Source: a virus
Taxonomy: Duplodnaviria > Caudoviricetes
Virus record (IMG/VR): IMGVR_UViG_3300021256_000102
Coordinates: 3,327 to 67,326 of that record
Length of the DNA: 64,000 bases
Reading direction: 5' to 3' (one strand)
Made by a program: the position numbers and the translations under genes. The notes beneath the pieces are model-generated. The model worked only from the letters and a program-made list of their open reading frames with translations. It made no database searches and had not been told where the DNA came from. Positions 2,096-60,280 of this stretch are shown here, in pieces. Position 1 is the first letter of the stretch. Each line of letters starts with the position of its first letter.

Positions 2096-5000
2096 ATGGA
2101 AAAAGTAACTTTATCCAGTAAAGTATTTACTGAAAATCCATTACTAGATGAAATAGTATTTAATGCTAGACAATTAGCTACTGGAACCATATTAAAAGAT
2201 ATGGATAAAGCTAATAATGCAGAAACATTAGAATCGATACAAGCTGGAGATGTACTTATTGCTATAAAGCATGGATATACTAGATTTGAATATTTTAAAT
2301 ATGATGAAAGTATTCTTAGACAGATATCTGGACTTACAGAAGAAGAGATTACTTATTATGCTCAACATAATGATGAAATTCCAGAAGGAGATATTAGAAC
2401 TCAGCTTTTAAATATAGCAAAAGAATCATTTGAAAATAATTATGTAGAATATAATAATTATTATAGAATGCTTCATGGAGATCCTAATTATGATGAATCT
2501 GGAATCTGGGAAGGGTTATGGATAGATGCTGAATATATTGATGAAGAAACTCCAACATCAATAGATCATATTTCTACTATATATAAAGAAGAGACTGATA
2601 GATATGGAAATGTAATTTCAGATTATCAGCTAATTCATGAATTACCATTATCTAAACAACTTTTACTTGATACAAATGGTACTCTTGAAAATATTGTAGA
2701 AAATGAAGACTGGCTTCTTGCTAATAATCTTAAAAAAGATGATGTATTATATTTACTTCATATGGGAGATAAACAGATTGACTATTATGATGCAAGAGTA
2801 GCAGATAAATTTGCTATGTTATATTGTCCTTCTTGTGACTCTGTAGAAGTAAGAGCTAGATATAAAGATCTTTTAGAAGCTAATAGATTATATCTTCTTT
2901 ATACAGTATATTCTGAAGCATATAAGTATAAATCTGATTATTATGATAATTTTATGATGGTATTTTTGGTAATTCAGACAATTATTGATATGATTGTAGA
3001 ATTACCAGAATATTTGATTAGAAGAGATGTATTTGATACTAGAACTTGTAAATATATTTTTGAGTCTAATGGAGTTAAATATTTTAGAGATATTCCATTA
3101 AGATATCAAATTGCACTTGTAAAAAATCTTAATAAACTAATTAAATTTAAATCTACTGATAAATGCATAGTTGATATTATTTCATTATTTGGATTTAGAA
3201 ATATTAATGCTTTTAAATATTATATTTTAAAAGATAGAAATGTTACAAATCCAGACGACCTTGATTATTATGATAATACAAAAATTGTTACAGATGAAGA
3301 AGGATATAGAGATATAGTTTCAGATAATGATGAAAATTATGATTTAAAATTTATTAAAGTTCCATTATTAGATCCTTTATATGATAATTATGTAAGAAAA
3401 GATCAAAACTTAGTAGAATATGATGAAATTACTAATCCAGATGCATATTGGGTAGGAGATAAACAATATGATACTGTAAAATCTGGAGTTAAAGATCTCG
3501 ATTTTACTATATTAAGATCTAAATATTATACTATAGAAGCCGTAATAGATTTAGCTCAAAGAAATTTTAGCTTAGTTTATTTTATGAATATTCTTATGTA
3601 TAATAAGGTAGATAAATCTTCTCTTAGAATCGATTTACCTAATATTTCAACTACAAAGAAAGTAGAATTAGTAAATGCAATTATTGCACTTTATGCTCTT
3701 GGATATATCTACTATGGTGTAGAAGATACTATTCTTGATAGTAGATCAAAGATAGCAGAAATCCTTGGATTTAATATGGAAGCAGATTTTGCTACAATAG
3801 CAGAATATTTACATGAGCATCATAGAGGGCTTACATTAGATGAGCTTTCATATGGCCATGATGTATTACCAGATGAAAGACTTGGATTTACTATTCCTGA
3901 TGATAATAAAATTTATAGTTTTGAAGAATTAAGAGAAATATTCCTTAATAATAGAAATATCTATAGACATGTATTAGAGGTAATGGCTAATCCTCCTAGT
4001 AAAGAAGTTTATGATGCATATAGATATTTATATAAAACTTTATTTATTATGAATAGAAATATGGAATATTTCCTTGTAGGAGATAATGATATTGTAGATC
4101 AATACAAATCTGATGGATATACTACAAAATTTATTAATATTCCAAGACCAGAGAATTATCAAAATCCAGAAGTATATGAATATGATATGAAATGCTTACT
4201 CTCTACTTGTAACGAAGAAACTTTATATTTTGAAATGAGAGATGATTTTGATAATACTCATAAATTTGATCTTTATATCTTTGATGGGGAAGAATTAGTT
4301 TCACTTAATGAAACTGCTCAGATGGCTACTACATATACAGAATTTATGAGATATAAAGATGCTAATGTATATAGATTCTTAGTTCAAACTGCAGCTATTA
4401 CAGATGAAGATAAGAGACAAGAAACTTGTATAAATGCTATTCAACAAATTATTGGATATATTAAAGATTATGTAGATGAAGATAAGACTGAGGTATATAT
4501 GGATGATGTATTCTCTGGTCTTCCTTCTGTATCATTAGAATTTGTTAAATCTTATATTGAAGAAGTAATTGATTTCTTTAAATCTTTTAAAATATTTACT
4601 CATGAATCTTCCATTATGTATGTAATAGATGATAAATTTGATCAATATATACAATTAATAGATTGGATTCTTATTAAATATTTATTTGATAAAGCTGAAA
4701 TAATTAAAATAGAAGATTACATTGCTAAATCTAATATAGAACTTTCTCATGAAGAAAAGGCTAAGCTTATTGATAAACTCTGGATGAGTATGGATTGGTG
4801 GTTAAAGAAAAACTATTTTGAATATTATGAAAATAATAGAAATGGATTAGAAGATCCTGGAAAGAAACATACCTTTACATATTATTGTCCTCAGTGTGGA
4901 GCTGAGCTTTCTGCTTCAGATACAGTATGTCCAAATTGTGGTATGGAAAATAAAGTTCCTATTACATATGACAATTATTCTCAATTTAATAAAGCAATTA

Positions 5001-10929: not shown

Positions 10930-10947
10930 TTCAATATTATAATATCT
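10930..10947 (-). promoter_or_regulatory. Early-type promoter for rtcB-prfH
   Basis: AGATATTATAA-tat-TGAA on minus strand, 34 nt upstream of rtcB ATG. Confidence 0.7.
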
Positions 10948-37608: not shown

Positions 37609-37688
37609 ATTTACCTCCTTAATATAAGTATTATCCTTTATTTCACTTTTATATTTACTAATTGAAAATATTAACTTTTAAAAAATAT

Positions 37689-37712
37689 AGGGTAGGAATT
37701 TCTTCCTACCCT
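37689..37712 (-). terminator. Terminator after portal gene
   Basis: AGGGTAGGAA...TTCCTACCCT. Confidence 0.8.
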
Positions 37713-37718
37713 TTTATA

Positions 37719-40040
37719 TTATTCAAACTCATCTTCACCTTTAGATTTTTGTATGCTATTATCCAAAGCAATTTGATCTTTAATCTTTTCAATTTCTTCA
37801 TCACTCATATAAGAAGGAATTAATTTTCTAATTAATCTCTTTTTAAATAAAGCTTTACCTTCATCACTCTGTCCAGCCATCTCAACTTCTGTAATAGAAT
37901 CAGCATATTGTACAGCACTATTAAGAAGCTGAGTTCCTTGAGTCATACTTAAGAATGCAGGAGGTGGTAACTGAACTTCAAGAGTAATATTTTCATCATA
38001 TTCAAATCTATAAATCTTAGTAAAGATTTCAGATAAGAAATCTTCCATTTTAAGTTGTCTTTTTAATACATTTCTAAGTAATTTAGCATTAGTCATTGTA
38101 TATCTAACAGCAAAGTCCATACCTGTAGAACTATTTACTATCTCTAATGGAACCCCTGTACTATTTACAGCAGATTCTTCAAGATTAGCTTGTAAATCTG
38201 TTGGAAATTCAAACTGTTGTCCAGGCATAGTATCAAATACAATAGGAGCATCACCAGAAGGTCCCATAGGAATTACAAAATCATTAAATCTACCAACAAT
38301 ACCTAATATATTATTAACAGATTCCATCTGTCTAATACCAAAGTTGCCTTTCTTAATAGTAGTAATTACATTAAGTAAGGATTGTGCAGTATTAGTATCA
38401 AGAGACTGCTTTACATAATATACTCTTCTATCAAATCCTCTGGTAGCCCATCCTAAAACAGAAGTTAATGTTAATGTAATCCATTGTTTTGCAGGTACTA
38501 AAGCATCCCAAAGATCTGATATTCCTCTATGAGTATCTGGGTCTTCTCTAAATTTTAAATGATGAATATCATCAGAAGGAACAAATACTACATCCATATC
38601 TATAGTATGAGAAACTTGATTATATTTATCATTAAATCTAAGAATCTTATAAATTTCTTCTTTAAGATCTGTATTGGAATTAATAAATGCAGCATCAATC
38701 TTCTGTGAAATCTTTCCTGCTAAAGTTCTAAGAAGTAAATTCTTTTGATTTTCTACATCTTCATTATTATTTACTTGAGTAGCTACTTGACCATTATTAA
38801 ACATTCCAGTTATAGAATTATATCCTCTAATATTACCAGTAGCATTTATATCAATATCCTCAAACTGATTAAATCTAATATAATATGCTCCAAACATTGT
38901 ATCTTCAATATAAATAGGAATAATTCTATCATGCTTAATAGTTCTTAATACAGCACCATTAACTTTAACTTTAGTATTAGGCTTATTATTAGAATTCATT
39001 AATCCATCTGCTGCAGATTTATCATCATCTTCCCAATCTAATTCATCATCAATAGTTTTATCTAATTTTACCATAGTATGAGTTTTATCAGATTTTTCAA
39101 AATGATCTTCAAATTTATCATTTGTTTCATGCACTACAAAAGATTCAGATAATCCTTTAAGAAGATCATTGCCGGCAGCTTTTTGTAAATAAAGATTATT
39201 TTCTACTGCTTCTTTTAATACTTTAGATTTATCAAAATTAATTTTGATTATAGGCTCATTATTATCCCCAGCTTCCATAGTAACAGTTACTGGAAGTTTC
39301 TTTAATTCTTTATTAAACTCTTTTTTTGTAACAGATTCTGTAATAGAATAAGATGTACTTTGTTTTCTTCTTAATAACTGCTCTAATGCAGTAGAATAAG
39401 GAACACAATATACAAATTCTTCACCATATTTAGAAGTATCTTCATACCAAGTTTCTGCTTTATTAGAGAGATCATATTTTTTAATCATTTCTGCAATATT
39501 ATTTTGAATAGCAGCATTTCTATCGGATTGAGGATTCTCTCCTTTCGCATGAACTTCAAGAAATTCTTTAGTATAAGAATCTGAACATAATACTGCATCT
39601 CTCTTAATATCAAGAGCAGCTTGAAGTTTAGTCATATATTTACAAATAAGATCAAACTCATTATCTAATTCAGTAATCCATTTAGTTTTAGAATAGGATT
39701 CCATCATAGAAGCTATTAGATCAGAAGATTGAAAAAGAGATGAGATATCATCATCTCCACCTTTTCCAAAAGCTTTATCTAATTTAGCTTGTGCTGAATT
39801 AGAAGAGGTTGTATTTTTTAAAAGCTTTCTAAAAAGTTTGGATGTATTAGAAATATTTTTAAATTCTTCATCTTGCTGAGTAGATTTTCTAATAGCATCA
39901 TCTAATTTATCTGTAACCTGAGTTTTAAATTCCTCAGAATTGTCATTTGAATAATATGTATTATTATATAAATCATTTACTCTCTGTCTGAGTAAATCAA
40001 GAGATTTATCTATTTTTCTCTGATTTGCATTATCAGCCAT
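37719..40040 (-). CDS. Portal protein
   Basis: 773 aa; SKYGEEFVY, RGFDRRVYYV, FNDFVIPMGPSGDAPIVFDTMPGQ, LEESAVNSTGVP pattern of T4 gp20/phiKZ-like portals; late-type promoter 40070-40081. Confidence 0.75.
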   Translation of the reverse strand: MADNANQRKIDKSLDLLRQRVNDLYNNTYYSNDNSEEFKTQVTDKLDDAIRKSTQQDEEFKNISNTSKLFRKLLKNTTSSNSAQAKLDKAFGKGGDDDISSLFQSSDLIASMMESYSKTKWITELDNEFDLICKYMTKLQAALDIKRDAVLCSDSYTKEFLEVHAKGENPQSDRNAAIQNNIAEMIKKYDLSNKAETWYEDTSKYGEEFVYCVPYSTALEQLLRRKQSTSYSITESVTKKEFNKELKKLPVTVTMEAGDNNEPIIKINFDKSKVLKEAVENNLYLQKAAGNDLLKGLSESFVVHETNDKFEDHFEKSDKTHTMVKLDKTIDDELDWEDDDKSAADGLMNSNNKPNTKVKVNGAVLRTIKHDRIIPIYIEDTMFGAYYIRFNQFEDIDINATGNIRGYNSITGMFNNGQVATQVNNNEDVENQKNLLLRTLAGKISQKIDAAFINSNTDLKEEIYKILRFNDKYNQVSHTIDMDVVFVPSDDIHHLKFREDPDTHRGISDLWDALVPAKQWITLTLTSVLGWATRGFDRRVYYVKQSLDTNTAQSLLNVITTIKKGNFGIRQMESVNNILGIVGRFNDFVIPMGPSGDAPIVFDTMPGQQFEFPTDLQANLEESAVNSTGVPLEIVNSSTGMDFAVRYTMTNAKLLRNVLKRQLKMEDFLSEIFTKIYRFEYDENITLEVQLPPPAFLSMTQGTQLLNSAVQYADSITEVEMAGQSDEGKALFKKRLIRKLIPSYMSDEEIEKIKDQIALDNSIQKSKGEDEFE

Positions 40041-49194: not shown

Positions 49195-49911
49195 TTAAAA
49201 ATTATTAACAATTAAATCATTGGCATCTTTATATTTTTTATCTTTAATAAGATCAATATATTTTATCCATTCTTCACAATTCTTTTTTGATTCTTCAAAG
49301 ATTTTTTGATTAATATCATTTTTATATTTTTCATCTTTAGCAAATCTTTCAAGATCAATTTCATCATATTTTTCTTTATATACAGTAGATTCTGTATTTC
49401 CTAATAAATATTTATTAATCATTAATAAATTTAAACAAGATTCTGTATTATACTCTTTACTAATAATCACTTTATCAGAATAATTTGCAATAATTTTTGT
49501 TGCTGATATAACAGCTTTTGATAAATTTGTATCAGGATAAACTCTACAAAATACTTTATAAATATCAAATTTATCATTATCAATAATATTATTGCATAAT
49601 TTAATATTATTCCAAATATATTTAACCGTTTCTACAAAACATTCTCCTAAATATATAGTAGATTCTATATTTAAAAAATCTACTACTTCAATATACTTAT
49701 GTGAATTTTTTCTATATAATGTGTCATCATAAAATACAAAACTACATAAATCTCTAAATACATCATAATTATAGTGCTGGCTTACAGTAGTTTTTAATAT
49801 TGGAATAAATTTATCTAATCCAACATCCCCAATTAATTTTAAATATTTTTCTTTGATTTTTTCTAAAACCATTTTTTCATATTCATAATCTGTTCTTACT
49901 AAATCAACCAT
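49195..49911 (-). CDS. Hypothetical early protein
   Basis: 238 aa, AAGGAGG SD, early promoter upstream. Confidence 0.75.
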   Translation of the reverse strand: MVDLVRTDYEYEKMVLEKIKEKYLKLIGDVGLDKFIPILKTTVSQHYNYDVFRDLCSFVFYDDTLYRKNSHKYIEVVDFLNIESTIYLGECFVETVKYIWNNIKLCNNIIDNDKFDIYKVFCRVYPDTNLSKAVISATKIIANYSDKVIISKEYNTESCLNLLMINKYLLGNTESTVYKEKYDEIDLERFAKDEKYKNDINQKIFEESKKNCEEWIKYIDLIKDKKYKDANDLIVNNF

Positions 49912-49946
49912 TAAGTTGCCTCCTTAAAATAAAATACAATATATAC

Positions 49947-49966
49947 TTCATTATTATAATATCTAT
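49947..49966 (-). promoter_or_regulatory. Early-type promoter
   Basis: ATAGATATTATAA-taa-TGAA on minus strand. Confidence 0.7.
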
Positions 49967-49985
49967 TCAAAAATTAAATTAAAAT

Positions 49986-50009
49986 GGAGTAGGGATTTCT
50001 CCCTACCCC
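49986..50009 (-). terminator. Terminator hairpin
   Basis: GGAGTAGGGA...TCCCTACCCC with A run on left (U tract on minus). Confidence 0.75.
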
Positions 50010-50012
50010 GTA

Positions 50013-50258
50013 TATTAAAATCTTAGAATATATTAAGTCAATTAACCACCGGAAAATGTCTTAACCTTATTATCATAGAATTATAACTATATACATTTAT
50101 AAACCGACTATGAAAAATATATCTTTTACAAACCCATGTTTTTGGCTTGGATAACTTATCCCAATAAGATTCTACACAGTTCTTTATAGCATTATTAAGA
50201 AAGAACCTAATCTTATTTTGACATTTTTAATGACTTAATATAATTCTAAAATCTAATA
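50013..50258 (-). ncRNA. Candidate structured non-coding RNA, family unknown
   Basis: Nested stems: 50023-40/50231-49, 50053-60/50220-27, 50163-71/50209-17, 50179-85/50200-06, 50149-53/50157-61, 50073-78/50108-13; outer stem extends by G-U pairs only on minus strand; no ORF. Confidence 0.55.
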
Positions 50259-51008
50259 TCAAGCTTTCTCCCATTCTCCATATCCAGATTCTAAATCTAT
50301 TATAATCTTTGTAGTAGAATTAAACTCTAATAATTTAGTATCTATATTATCATAAAAATTATTAATATTATTATATTTTTCTTCAGCAAGTTTAGTTAAT
50401 TCCAATGGATCTAATAATTCTACTTTATTAGCATCTATATATTCCTTAGCATATTCATTATATCCAGTCATTTTCTTTACTAATTCTATATTATTAGGAT
50501 CAACATATCCTGGTTGAATAGAATTTAATTTAGCTAATACATAAGTAGCTATCTTTTGTTCATCTAATACTGTTCTAGAATATGCTTCTAATGCTTTATA
50601 TGCATCATTAAGATCTGATCTTAATCTTTCTCCAATTTTTATATAATAATTTTTAATTATTGGAGATTTTAATATTAAAATTTGTGCAATAGATAATTCA
50701 ATTTCTTTATTAGGATTAAATATATCAGGAACAGTAATTCTAAAATAAGAATTTACTTGTTCTTTAATAATAAGTAAATTTCTAAGAAGCATAATATTAT
50801 ATATAATATCAGAAAACTGATTTTTAATATTATTTTCTGTATCTATAATATTAGCACCATTTATTGTTTCATTTCTATTTTTATTATATAATGATATAAG
50901 TGCTCTAGATTCTTCTGAATCTAAATATCTTTTACTAATATCATCGACTTTTCTTTTTTGAGATTTTATTCTATTCAAAAGTTCTGTTATAGAAATTATT
51001 TCTTTCAC
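50259..51008 (-). CDS. Hypothetical coiled-coil protein
   Basis: 249 aa helical ORF (GTG start, GGAGAG SD) immediately upstream of the structured RNA. Confidence 0.75.
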   Translation of the reverse strand: MKEIISITELLNRIKSQKRKVDDISKRYLDSEESRALISLYNKNRNETINGANIIDTENNIKNQFSDIIYNIMLLRNLLIIKEQVNSYFRITVPDIFNPNKEIELSIAQILILKSPIIKNYYIKIGERLRSDLNDAYKALEAYSRTVLDEQKIATYVLAKLNSIQPGYVDPNNIELVKKMTGYNEYAKEYIDANKVELLDPLELTKLAEEKYNNINNFYDNIDTKLLEFNSTTKIIIDLESGYGEWEKA

Positions 51009-51028: not shown

Positions 51029-51331
51029 TTATCCAAAAGACTGTCTAAATTCAAAAATACTTTTATCATAAACAGGACTTGGTATTGGTTCTTTACATTC
51101 TGTTTTTGTACAAATATGTCCATCAATATTATATTTTATAGGACATCTATATCCACAAGATTTACATTCATATCTTATTGCTATTGGAGTACTAAATAAA
51201 TCTTTAACTAATAAATTTAATTTACCATCACAAATAGGACATGTATCATCAGAAAAAATAAAACCGATTATTGGTTTATCTTTTCTAAATTGATTTATTC
51301 CTGTAAAAGATTTACTTTGTTCTATATTCAT
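51029..51331 (-). CDS. Zinc-ribbon protein
   Basis: CPICD...CKSCG pair plus extra Cys. Confidence 0.7.
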   Translation of the reverse strand: MNIEQSKSFTGINQFRKDKPIIGFIFSDDTCPICDGKLNLLVKDLFSTPIAIRYECKSCGYRCPIKYNIDGHICTKTECKEPIPSPVYDKSIFEFRQSFG

Positions 51332-51359
51332 ATAATCACCAAAAAATAATTATTATAAT

Positions 51360-51398
51360 AATATTGGTAGAGTAGTTAAATTCTACTCTACCAATATT
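51360..51398 (-). terminator. Terminator hairpin
   Basis: AATATTGGTAGAGTAG...CTACTCTACCAATATT, 16 bp. Confidence 0.85.
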
Positions 51399-51405
51399 AA
51401 TCGTT

Positions 51406-52441: not shown

Positions 52442-54400
52442 TCATCCCTGTTCTTCTTCAAAAGATGTAGTAATTTCCCCAGTACCATCTTTAGAATCTG
52501 ATGGAACAATTACTGTTTCTCCAGTATCAATTACTGCTCCAATAGTGTAATCTTTCTTCCCCTCAAGATCGATAAGAAGAGGCATTAATCTATGATATGT
52601 TTCAATTGTTTCTCGAACCATATCATCTTTTACATAGTCATAAGAAAGACCAAGTTTTTTCTTAAGCTCAAATCCTTGTGTAATTCCATATAAGTCTTTA
52701 AGTTCAGATAAAGTATCTTTATAAAAGTCTTCCCAACCATTAGGCTCTTCATAATCAGAAAAAGATCCATTATATACTTTTGCCATAGGGCAAATAATTC
52801 CAGACAATCCAGGATCCGATGCTGAAGAAGAATCAAGATCAACTCTTCCTAAATGAGATGGATGAACAGATCTATAGATAATAGGTACAGCTGTACCATT
52901 TCCCTGATCGCCAAGACCAGATATTCCTTTATATGTATATGACAATGCAAGTTCTGCATCATTATCATTTACAAGATCTACATAATCTACTAAGTTAGCA
53001 GAATTGATAGACTTAAGAATATAATCTGGAGCTGTATCTATTACTCTTGTTACATCTTTAAAAGAAATATTTTTTCCTTTATCAGATATTCTATAAATAC
53101 CAGTAGAAATTTTCTTTGCATAAATTGCAGGAAGATATTCATCTGCTTTTCTTGGATGCTTTGTAGAGATATCAATATTATCTCTTTGCTTAAGGTAAGA
53201 GAATTCTCTCATCATCCATCTAAGAATACAATATGTATCTTCTTTATCTTCCATTGGTAATCTTATAGATTGCTTGATTTCAAGATCATAGATACTTTCA
53301 AGAGAATCAAGTACCGGGATTCCTTTATCAAGAGTAGCAGACTGAAAATCTGCACCAAGAACTCTATTCCAATATCTTGGATTGTAAATCTCATTAAATT
53401 TATCAAGTTTCTTTACACTCTTAAGAATAGTATAGCAGAAAGACTGAGTAACATTATCTTTATCGAATAACCTCTTAATTACAGATAAAATAATTTTACC
53501 CTGTTTATCAGAAAAATTATAAAAAATATTTGGATCAAGAGGTTTATTATCTTCAGCTTTTTGAATATAAATTCCTTCTAATCCAAGCATCTCAAGAGTT
53601 CCATAAAAGCCATATCTACCAAGAATAAACTTAATTGTATCAGTTTTCTTAGTAAATACATAGCTTGCAAATAAAACACATCTATGAGCTTGTTTATCAC
53701 AAATATCTACAAGATCATAATATTCCTTATATACCTTAATAGGCATAAATTGTGTTTTAAGTGTAATAGTCTGAGTTTTACTATTAGAAGTAGAATTATT
53801 ATAAGTACTACCATCTACAATCTGAAAGATAGGATTATAATAATTTCCAAGAATTCTAAAATAATATTTATCTACATATCTTGGAAGAGCAATAAGTACA
53901 TCAACTGTACCTTCACTCTTTTCTAATTCTCCAGTTTTAGAATCTACTCTAATTTTATTCTCAGGAATATTGAGTTTAACATAATATATTACTTTAAGTA
54001 ACATAATGTCTGAATCTCTAAGATTAATATACTCATAATTATTATCTATTCTTTTACCATTTTTAGTTTTAGAAGAATAATATTCATATAAAGTTCTATT
54101 AATCTCATTATAATCTTTAATAGTTTCAAAATTTAAAACTTTTAATACAAAATATTTATCTCTTTGACAAGATAAAATTACACGTTTCATTCCTTCAATA
54201 AGATCATCATCATTTCTCTGGAACCAATAATCATTAAATTCTTCACGATTATTCTTATTGAATTCATACATAAATTTATCAACATTTGGTCTCTCATTAG
54301 GAGAAACCATCATAGAACCAGTTGAATCTGAATAAGGATTATGATTCTGTGGCATAGGAATCTGTTGATAATTATAAGAGAAGTTTTGATCCACTTTCAA
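52442..54400 (-). CDS. rpoB: RNA polymerase beta subunit N-terminal fragment (probably non-virion RNAP)
   Basis: GNYYNPIFQI and YRSVHPSHLGRVDLDSSSASDPGLSGII (cf. [25 protein letters not shown]); TTG start overlapping upstream TGA. Confidence 0.88.
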   Translation of the reverse strand: MKVDQNFSYNYQQIPMPQNHNPYSDSTGSMMVSPNERPNVDKFMYEFNKNNREEFNDYWFQRNDDDLIEGMKRVILSCQRDKYFVLKVLNFETIKDYNEINRTLYEYYSSKTKNGKRIDNNYEYINLRDSDIMLLKVIYYVKLNIPENKIRVDSKTGELEKSEGTVDVLIALPRYVDKYYFRILGNYYNPIFQIVDGSTYNNSTSNSKTQTITLKTQFMPIKVYKEYYDLVDICDKQAHRCVLFASYVFTKKTDTIKFILGRYGFYGTLEMLGLEGIYIQKAEDNKPLDPNIFYNFSDKQGKIILSVIKRLFDKDNVTQSFCYTILKSVKKLDKFNEIYNPRYWNRVLGADFQSATLDKGIPVLDSLESIYDLEIKQSIRLPMEDKEDTYCILRWMMREFSYLKQRDNIDISTKHPRKADEYLPAIYAKKISTGIYRISDKGKNISFKDVTRVIDTAPDYILKSINSANLVDYVDLVNDNDAELALSYTYKGISGLGDQGNGTAVPIIYRSVHPSHLGRVDLDSSSASDPGLSGIICPMAKVYNGSFSDYEEPNGWEDFYKDTLSELKDLYGITQGFELKKKLGLSYDYVKDDMVRETIETYHRLMPLLIDLEGKKDYTIGAVIDTGETVIVPSDSKDGTGEITTSFEEEQG

Positions 54401-55759: not shown

Positions 55760-55853
55760 GATACGTTTTCTCCTTTCGGTTATAAAATATATAGTTACAA
55801 AAGACAACCCTTTTGTTGGGTATCAATATTATAATACTTTATTGTTTTTAAGT

Positions 55854-59727: not shown

Positions 59728-59752
59728 ATCTTCACCTCCATAATTATAATAT

Positions 59753-60280
59753 CTATATATTTTCAATTTTAATATCTTCTCCAATTGATACATTATAAAG
59801 ATCATTATATGATTCTATAGTGATCATATAAGTTTTCTTAATATTATAACCCAATGTAGATTTTATAAAATCGGATGGATTTTTAACTTGCTCTTTTACT
59901 GTTGAAATTTTTATTATAGATTTTTCTTTATCTAAATCCATTAATATAACCCCTGATAAAATTAAAAAACTATTATCATCATTTTTTAAGTCTTCAAAAT
60001 CATCTTCTTCAATTATATTTGCAATTTCTATAGACATATATAAATTATTTATAACTATAAAATCTATAATTTTATAACAATCAATATTTTTAAATACTTT
60101 CAGGAAATTTTCTTTGAATTGAGAATAAGAATTAAATTGTTTTAGAAAAAGATTTGCTTTAAGAGTAATTACATATTCATCTCTATTAATATCAATTATT
60201 TCATTAGAATTTTTTATTTCTATTAATTTATGTAATTTACAAGAAGTATTTCGAATTTTTTCATATAATTCAAAATCCAT
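59753..60280 (-). CDS. Hypothetical protein
   Basis: 175 aa, AGGAG SD. Confidence 0.7.
   Translation of the reverse strand: MDFELYEKIRNTSCKLHKLIEIKNSNEIIDINRDEYVITLKANLFLKQFNSYSQFKENFLKVFKNIDCYKIIDFIVINNLYMSIEIANIIEEDDFEDLKNDDNSFLILSGVILMDLDKEKSIIKISTVKEQVKNPSDFIKSTLGYNIKKTYMITIESYNDLYNVSIGEDIKIENI

Follow-up and report, generated by a model that had tools for sequence, protein, structure and literature searches.

Several described RNAs of bacteria and phages bear on the element reported here. Type II 3'-UTR-derived bacterial sRNAs, such as CpxQ and SroC, consist of a seed region of 50-100 nt and a terminator. The pRNA of phage phi29, an early packaging RNA, has a multi-helix junction that is closed by a 5'/3' helix, and it forms part of a ribonucleoprotein (RNP). 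RNase III processing sites in the early region of phage T7 consist of one hairpin each, about 60 nt long, and long interrupted double-stranded RNA rods are cut by RNase III. To our knowledge, covariation-supported RNA classes of about 250 nt without known relatives are uncommon; earlier classes of this kind often proved to be ribozymes, RNP cores or regulators.

We analyzed a window of 64,000 nt (positions 3,327 to 67,326 of IMG/VR virus record IMGVR_UViG_3300021256_000102), in which an RNA domain of about 248 nt occupies positions 50012-50259 of the minus strand, the gene strand. Like the type II 3'-UTR sRNAs, this element stands directly after a stop codon, lacks a conserved promoter of its own at its 5' edge, and shares the terminator of the mRNA, which is conserved and lies directly 3' of it. 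Unlike them, it is phage-encoded, measures about 250 nt with at least six helices and a closed 5'/3' rod, and has no complementary target that we could find. With 6S RNA (RF00013) it shares its size class, a long interrupted closing helix that joins the ends, and a place beside transcription genes, and like 6S RNA it is plausibly stable and protein-binding. However, no 6S covariance-model match was obtained at E<=10, and the rod of the element opens into a multi-branch junction that has only 2-3 nt on its 5' side, in place of a rod with a large central bubble. Like GOLLD (RF01998) and ROOL (RF03087), the element is phage-borne and covariation-supported, and it apparently comes from rumen or gut metagenomes, to judge from the record names; in contrast to both, it is two to three times smaller, matches neither model, lies away from the tRNA cluster and has no promoter of its own. 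The closing of a multi-helix junction by a 5'/3' helix in an early phage RNA recalls phi29 pRNA, although there is no Rfam match and the phage type is unrelated. Like the T7 RNase III sites, the element has a long imperfect double-stranded stem where an early cistron ends, but it adds to that stem a conserved junction domain of 190 nt.

Location and folding of the element

The gap between the upstream gene for a 249-aa protein (50259-51008, minus strand) and the downstream 238-aa gene (49195-49911, minus strand) measures 347 nt (49912-50258). The original prediction, made by a model that read the bare sequence, had described it as a large ORF-free gap folding into nested stems just before a terminator, with G-U pairs pointing to the minus strand. 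Neither strand of 49912-50258 contains an ORF of at least 20 aa. For the minus strand of 50005-50265 the minimum free energy (MFE) of folding is -59.9 kcal/mol, versus -42.8 +/- 4.0 kcal/mol for 200 dinucleotide-preserving shuffles of the same region (z = -4.26), and 0 of the 200 were as stable; the region thus passes the comparison with shuffled sequence that the original prediction had put forward as a check. The opposite (plus) strand reaches an MFE of only -42.2 kcal/mol. The 5' end of the domain is the last base of the UGA stop codon of the 249-aa gene, and its 3' end lies 2 nt ahead of the terminator stem. At the DNA level, an imperfect inverted repeat of 34 nt flanks 180 nt at the element, in a region that is AT-rich.

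Conservation and covariation among relatives

Database relatives of the 249-aa protein number 13, with 50-99% identity. Two complete jumbo-phage genomes that carry the element, G001 (287,868 bp) and G002 (274,241 bp, with direct terminal repeats), came from two further scans, one guided by a profile and one with a DNA pattern. The IMG/VR record from which the window is taken measures 67 kb and has a CheckV completeness of 25%. The clade is a small group of uncultured jumbo phages of about 270-290 kb, distantly related to Bacillus phage AR9 and known from metagenomes only. A scan of prokaryote genome contigs with the 249-aa profile returned no relative, and hence no host clue.

In 16 of the 16 loci that reach the gap, a count that includes one contig (L012) ending inside the element, the RNA lies between the 249-aa gene and a conserved terminator; 12 distinct sequences make up the alignment. 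Wherever contigs extend far enough, they share a gene order of RNAP beta-like, 83 aa, 247 aa, the ~100-aa zinc ribbon and ~250 aa, followed by the gap of 323-357 nt, genes of ~240 aa and ~256 aa, and then an SbcC-like gene. Nucleotide identity to the window copy is 61-86% for the RNA and 65-87% for the adjacent gene, so that the constraint on the element is comparable to that on coding sequence. The element is single-copy in its own record and in both complete genomes, and nhmmer --max found no second copy in the genomes searched. Small ORFs inside the element vary in frame, start and length among relatives.

RNAalifold applied to the 12 sequences gave 55 pairs, with the 10-bp terminator counted in. 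Standard pairs fill 97.5% of the 647 pair cells, versus 37-46% when the 3' partner is slid by 1-3 columns, and two-sided changes are found in 21 pairs, versus 1-3 in six slid registers. None of 500 column shuffles matched the observed pairing values; a measure of further pair types did not rise above the column shuffles. The alignment holds 43 G-U cells and no A-C cells, with 97.5% pairing on the gene strand versus 90.9% on the other, and selection therefore acts on the gene-strand RNA. The nested stems of the original prediction are present in the window and conserved in the relatives, and their assignment to the minus strand holds strongly; covariation in homologs, proposed at the outset as a check, is present as compensatory double changes in 21 of the 55 pairs. 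We conclude that a conserved RNA structure almost certainly exists at this locus.

Architecture of the RNA

The overall shape is an interrupted rod of about 29 bp (P1-P1b-P2) that joins the 5' and 3' ends and opens into a multi-helix junction, where the P3/P3b arm meets a small dispensable hairpin, a block of 28 nt with almost no variation and an AU-rich arm that varies. All coordinates below refer to the minus strand. P1 has 16 bp (5' strand 50244-50259, 3' strand 50012-50028) and corresponds to helix 1 of the alignment, with 16 pairs, five two-sided changes and 97.9% pairing; its outermost pair uses the A of the UGA stop. The outer part of P1, 6 bp plus one G-U pair (AUAUUAG / UUUAAUAU), is invariant, and the inner pairs covary. 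P1b (helix 2; 7 bp, 50231-50237 with 50034-50040) has compensatory changes in five of its seven pairs, and P2 (helix 3; 6 bp, 50220-50225 with 50055-50060) in three of six. The GC-rich bulge CCGGUGG, singled out in the original prediction, is present in the window, but its sequence differs among relatives.

The P3/P3b arm (50163-50217; helices 4 and 5) comprises 8 + 5 pairs, of which five are compensatory, and is 99-100% paired. P3 itself has 8 bp (50210-50217 with 50163-50170) and four compensatory pairs, and P3b has 5 bp (50203-50207 with 50178-50182) and one. The two are separated by a conserved asymmetric internal loop (UA / GYGWAGW), and the apical loop is variable. P3c (50149-50162; GGGAU..AUCC), a small variable hairpin seen in single-sequence folds, is present with a changed stem sequence in about six lineages and is deleted in the L009/L011/L223 lineage.

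The most conserved stretch, here called block B (50120-50148, consensus ACCAGAAACAUAGGUUUGUAAAUAUAUA), is defined by invariant alignment columns; its approximately 28 nt are almost invariant even where the flanking protein is only 50% identical. Within it, an invariant ACC/GGU mini-hairpin can form (50144-50146 with 50132-50134). In single-sequence folds, the GGUU of block C, an invariant GGUU(A) identified in the alignment at 50062-50066, is an alternative long-range partner for the ACC of block B. The ACC thus has two partners, a GGU 9-11 nt downstream and the distal GGUU, and because both are invariant, covariation is undecided between them. The AU-rich arm or arms of the central domain (50067-50119) are variable, with folds that differ between relatives, and RNAalifold found no consensus helix in this stretch across the 12 sequences.

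The domain is followed by an intrinsic terminator (49986-50009; helix 7) with a 10-bp G+C-rich stem, a GAAA loop and a U-rich tail. The claimed position just before a terminator is borne out, since this terminator was found by a scan and covaries: three of the 10 stem pairs are compensatory, and the GAAA loop is present in 11 of the 12 sequences. Terminators of like sequence type (GGAGTAGGGA-GAAA-TCCCTACTCC) also occur at about 37684-37741 of the window and at 247861-247917 of G001, and this recurrence suggests that the type is a preferred terminator of the phage polymerases.

Searches against known RNA families and sequences

The whole window was searched with Rfam 15 (4227 models, including 6S, Y RNA/YrlA, pRNA, GOLLD, ROOL, HEARO, ribozymes, riboswitches and group I/II introns), a scan that the original prediction had put forward as a check, and there were 0 matches at the gathering score. 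At E<=10, the window region and seven relatives gave isolated matches at chance level, with no family recurring. The claimed absence of tRNA and tmRNA signatures agrees with ARAGORN, which reported 0 such genes in the window. The complete relatives each have five clustered tRNA genes (Pro, Met, Gln, Lys, Leu), at 33.9-36.0 kb in G001 and 0.36-1.5 kb in G002, more than 100 kb from the element.

A blastn search of the region against cultured phages returned only a 64-nt chance match in Lactobacillus phage LP65. An exact scan of viral contigs with a 17-mer of block B found 25 unrelated loci. A gapped block-B pattern found 62 viral and 120 metagenome loci among the matches listed, and nhmmer confirmed one of these only, L055, which is G001. 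Searches of the literature turned up no account of an RNA like this. As neither an Rfam match, a close DNA match in cultured phages nor a paper on it was found, we class the element as a new RNA family, and the original proposal of a novel phage ncRNA is upheld by a covarying gene-strand structure of this kind that is kept at 50% identity of the flanking protein.

Further candidate classes were rejected. For Y RNA/YrlA, no Ro60 partner was detected: Pfam searches of G000, G001 and G002 found no TROVE domain, which was detected in control genomes. A retron, DGR or DRT ncRNA was discarded, since no reverse transcriptase was detected beside the element or in the three records (no RVT_1 match; no reverse transcriptase signature in the neighboring proteins). 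An RNase III cassette was set aside because Pfam searches detected no RNase III domain in the complete relatives. A base-pairing sRNA was rejected for want of a conserved complementary target: RNAduplex runs of block B over the three genomes gave matches at noise level, and the sole pair of matches in orthologous genes is antisense to a coding region and explained by conservation of the gene.

Transcription context

Early promoters of phage AR9 read AAATATATATTAT-(6N)-G, that is, ...ATATTAT-(6N)-G, and its late promoters read AACA-(6N)-TA/G, where transcription starts at the last base; internal late promoters occur within early operons (PMC5312081). The early consensus of the present clade, (A/T)A(G/T)ATATTATAAT-AWT-G, with the short form AGATATTATAAT-N3-G, is an extended version of that of AR9. 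About 32 canonical copies occur in each complete relative, and almost all of them lie on the strand of the local genes. Sites in the window lie at 49949-49964, ~55835 and 59743-59754 on the minus strand, and at 10936 and 17007.

The site at 49949-49964 (minus strand; AGATATTATAATAATG), conserved in all relatives, sits right after the terminator of the RNA, fits the AR9 early consensus and serves as the early-type promoter of the next transcription unit, with the G of AGATATTATAATAATG as the likely +1 position. At ~55835, the variant TATTATAATATTGA precedes a 219-aa gene that heads the string of genes running to the RNA. Canonical early promoters were seen ahead of the operon and beyond the terminator but nowhere between, and the final ~40 nt of the 249-aa gene, which vary among relatives, hold no conserved promoter motif. 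Between the 247-aa and 100-aa genes, at 51352-51399 (minus strand), a hairpin of 15-17 bp (ATATTGGTAGAGTAG..CTACTCTACCAATAT) is immediately overlapped by a sigma-70-like promoter, TTAACT-16-TATAAT (~51352-51379), that precedes the 100-aa gene; both are conserved in all relatives. This feature may combine a terminator with a promoter of host type, or it may serve as a site of processing.

The 5' strand of P1 belongs to the RNA, because P1 columns 16-22 covary, and the lack of a conserved promoter motif at the 5' edge indicates that the RNA would be the 3' end of an early mRNA. These motifs and alignments make it most likely that the RNA is transcribed as the 3' portion of a polycistronic early mRNA and shares its terminator.

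Neighboring genes and their products

The stop codon of the 249-aa gene abuts P1. Its product is a helical protein (AlphaFold2 model, pLDDT 86) with no sequence match in Pfam, NCBIfam, PADLOC or PDB and a weak C-terminal match to a PHROG annotated as tail fiber. The model matched generic helical folds only, the matches in BFVD were uncharacterized phage proteins, and the ESM Atlas returned nothing informative. The 100-aa gene (51029-51331, minus strand) encodes a zinc-ribbon protein with an invariant CPxC...CxxC motif; no family matched it, and its AlphaFold2 model (pLDDT 54) is too poor for fold comparison. Neither protein matched a known RNA-binding family or fold. Both genes strictly co-occur with the element, in what is predicted to be one transcript.

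Farther upstream, a 652-aa gene encodes an RNAP beta-like protein that matches PHROG 2943 and shares 29% identity with AR9 g105; in the annotation of the AR9 record, g105 is the N-terminal part of the beta subunit of the non-virion RNAP. Further relatives of this protein are found in PBS1, Staphylococcus phage S6 and Yersinia phages.

Proposed role and alternatives

We tentatively favor, with somewhat less than even confidence, a nuclease-resistant RNA carried on the 3' UTR, whose junction core would bind a protein; in the early phase of infection such an RNA would serve in trans as a scaffold or decoy. The early polycistronic mRNA 219aa-222aa-RNAP beta-like-83-247-100-249-RNA would be made first, starting from the early-type promoter near 55835, from the promoter at ~51352-51379, or from both. 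The closed-end rod and the terminator may then let the RNA outlast the coding part of the mRNA; alternatively, a host RNase specific for double strands could cut the RNA domain free. The invariant unpaired core, comprising block B, the P3 internal loop and GGUUA, would offer the binding surface, and in such an RNP the bound protein might come from the host or be one of the two co-transcribed products of 100 aa and 249 aa. The original prediction had likewise named an RNP with these two proteins, or a decoy RNA, as possibilities. At least six helices and an almost invariant 28-nt block, kept despite a flanking-protein identity of 50%, argue for more than a stabilizing hairpin. The RNA is kept as carefully as the adjoining protein gene, and a giant phage that brings its own transcription machinery presumably expresses it as soon as infection begins. 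It is a compact and well-delimited candidate for work on partners, processing and three-dimensional structure.

The strongest alternative, which we nevertheless regard as rather unlikely, is that the element acts purely in cis, protecting the mRNA from 3' exonucleases, aiding or insulating termination, or providing an RNase III-type processing site. Such a role would agree with the extension of the element from stop codon to terminator, with the lack of a conserved promoter motif at its 5' edge, and with the long interrupted rod, which is of the type generally known as an RNase III substrate. Because the stop codon is where P1 starts, the helix must be melted by ribosomes that terminate there, and this fits a cis role equally well. 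However, other unit ends in the same phage use a plain hairpin, the element occurs once per genome of 274-288 kb, and a stabilizer needs neither a nearly invariant unpaired 28-nt block nor a conserved internal loop.

Block B might also act as DNA, as an internal late promoter for the non-virion RNAP (nvRNAP), so that a late transcript of about 135 nt, spanning the 3' half and the terminator, would be made besides the full-length early form. The AACA-N6-UG at 50140-50129 (minus strand) equals the AR9 late consensus, and AR9 offers the precedent of internal late promoters in early operons (PMC5312081). AACA-N6-T(G/A) is found in nine of the 12 lineages, and in six of eight relatives scanned it is the only such motif in the ~1.5 kb from the promoter of the 100-aa gene to the start of the next gene. 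We find this composite arrangement quite improbable: AACA is broken in three of the 12 lineages (AATA in L013, AACG in L008 and L224), the motif arises by chance about 0.5 times per kb, a promoter leaves the conservation of the N6 spacer GGUU and of the flanks unexplained, and covariation demands that the 5' half be in the same molecule.

A related possibility, very doubtful in our judgment, is a 6S-like promoter mimic that would titrate the phage multisubunit RNAP or a specificity factor at the early-to-late switch, with the early core GAUAUUA displayed in the invariant outer helix and the late motif in the junction. The operon is shared with the RNAP beta-like gene, the outer part of P1 is invariant whereas the inner part covaries, its GAUAUUA equals all seven core bases of the clade early promoter, and block B fits the late consensus. 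Both motifs are nonetheless short and common in an AT-rich genome (about 0.55 per kb for GAUAUUA and 0.5 for the late motif); the chance of finding both in 250 nt is a few percent, in a comparison made post hoc. Rfam gave no 6S match, and the shape is branched, not a rod with a bubble. Moreover, a report on the AR9 nvRNAP describes recognition of template-strand UUGU (PMC9209446); the enzyme does not read AACA. If true, the promoter-mimic reading would give the first example of an RNA that regulates a viral multisubunit RNAP.

Very little probability attaches to a transcription attenuator or riboswitch that would govern read-through of the terminator into the 238-aa gene, as a complex folded domain immediately 5' of an intrinsic terminator might suggest; a conserved early promoter that belongs to the 238-aa gene itself lies between the terminator and the start codon, no conserved alternative (antiterminator) pairing of the domain with a terminator arm was seen, and Rfam gave no riboswitch match. 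A purely DNA-level feature, either a MITE or other mobile insertion or an inverted-repeat replication origin, would account for the 34-nt imperfect inverted repeat and the AT-rich surroundings, but its probability is close to negligible, and it is rejected because selection acts on the gene-strand RNA. A MITE is further contradicted by the single copy in three genomes and by the same site in 16 of 16 related loci, down to 50% flanking-protein identity, and a replication origin by the lack of a cumulative GC-skew inflection at the element in the complete genomes.

Additional observations in the operon

At the end of the 249-aa gene, TGATATTAG (50253-50261, minus strand) contains the in-frame tandem stops TGA TAT TAG, and in some relatives a TAA stands before them. 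This 9-mer has 12 copies in G001 and 22 in G002, versus about eight expected. The start codon of the 652-aa gene (TTG or GTG) overlaps the stop codon of the upstream 222-aa gene at window positions 54393-54400 (minus strand), which suggests translational coupling of the two. An AACA-N6-TA motif lies inside the 222-aa gene, 27 nt ahead of the 652-aa start.
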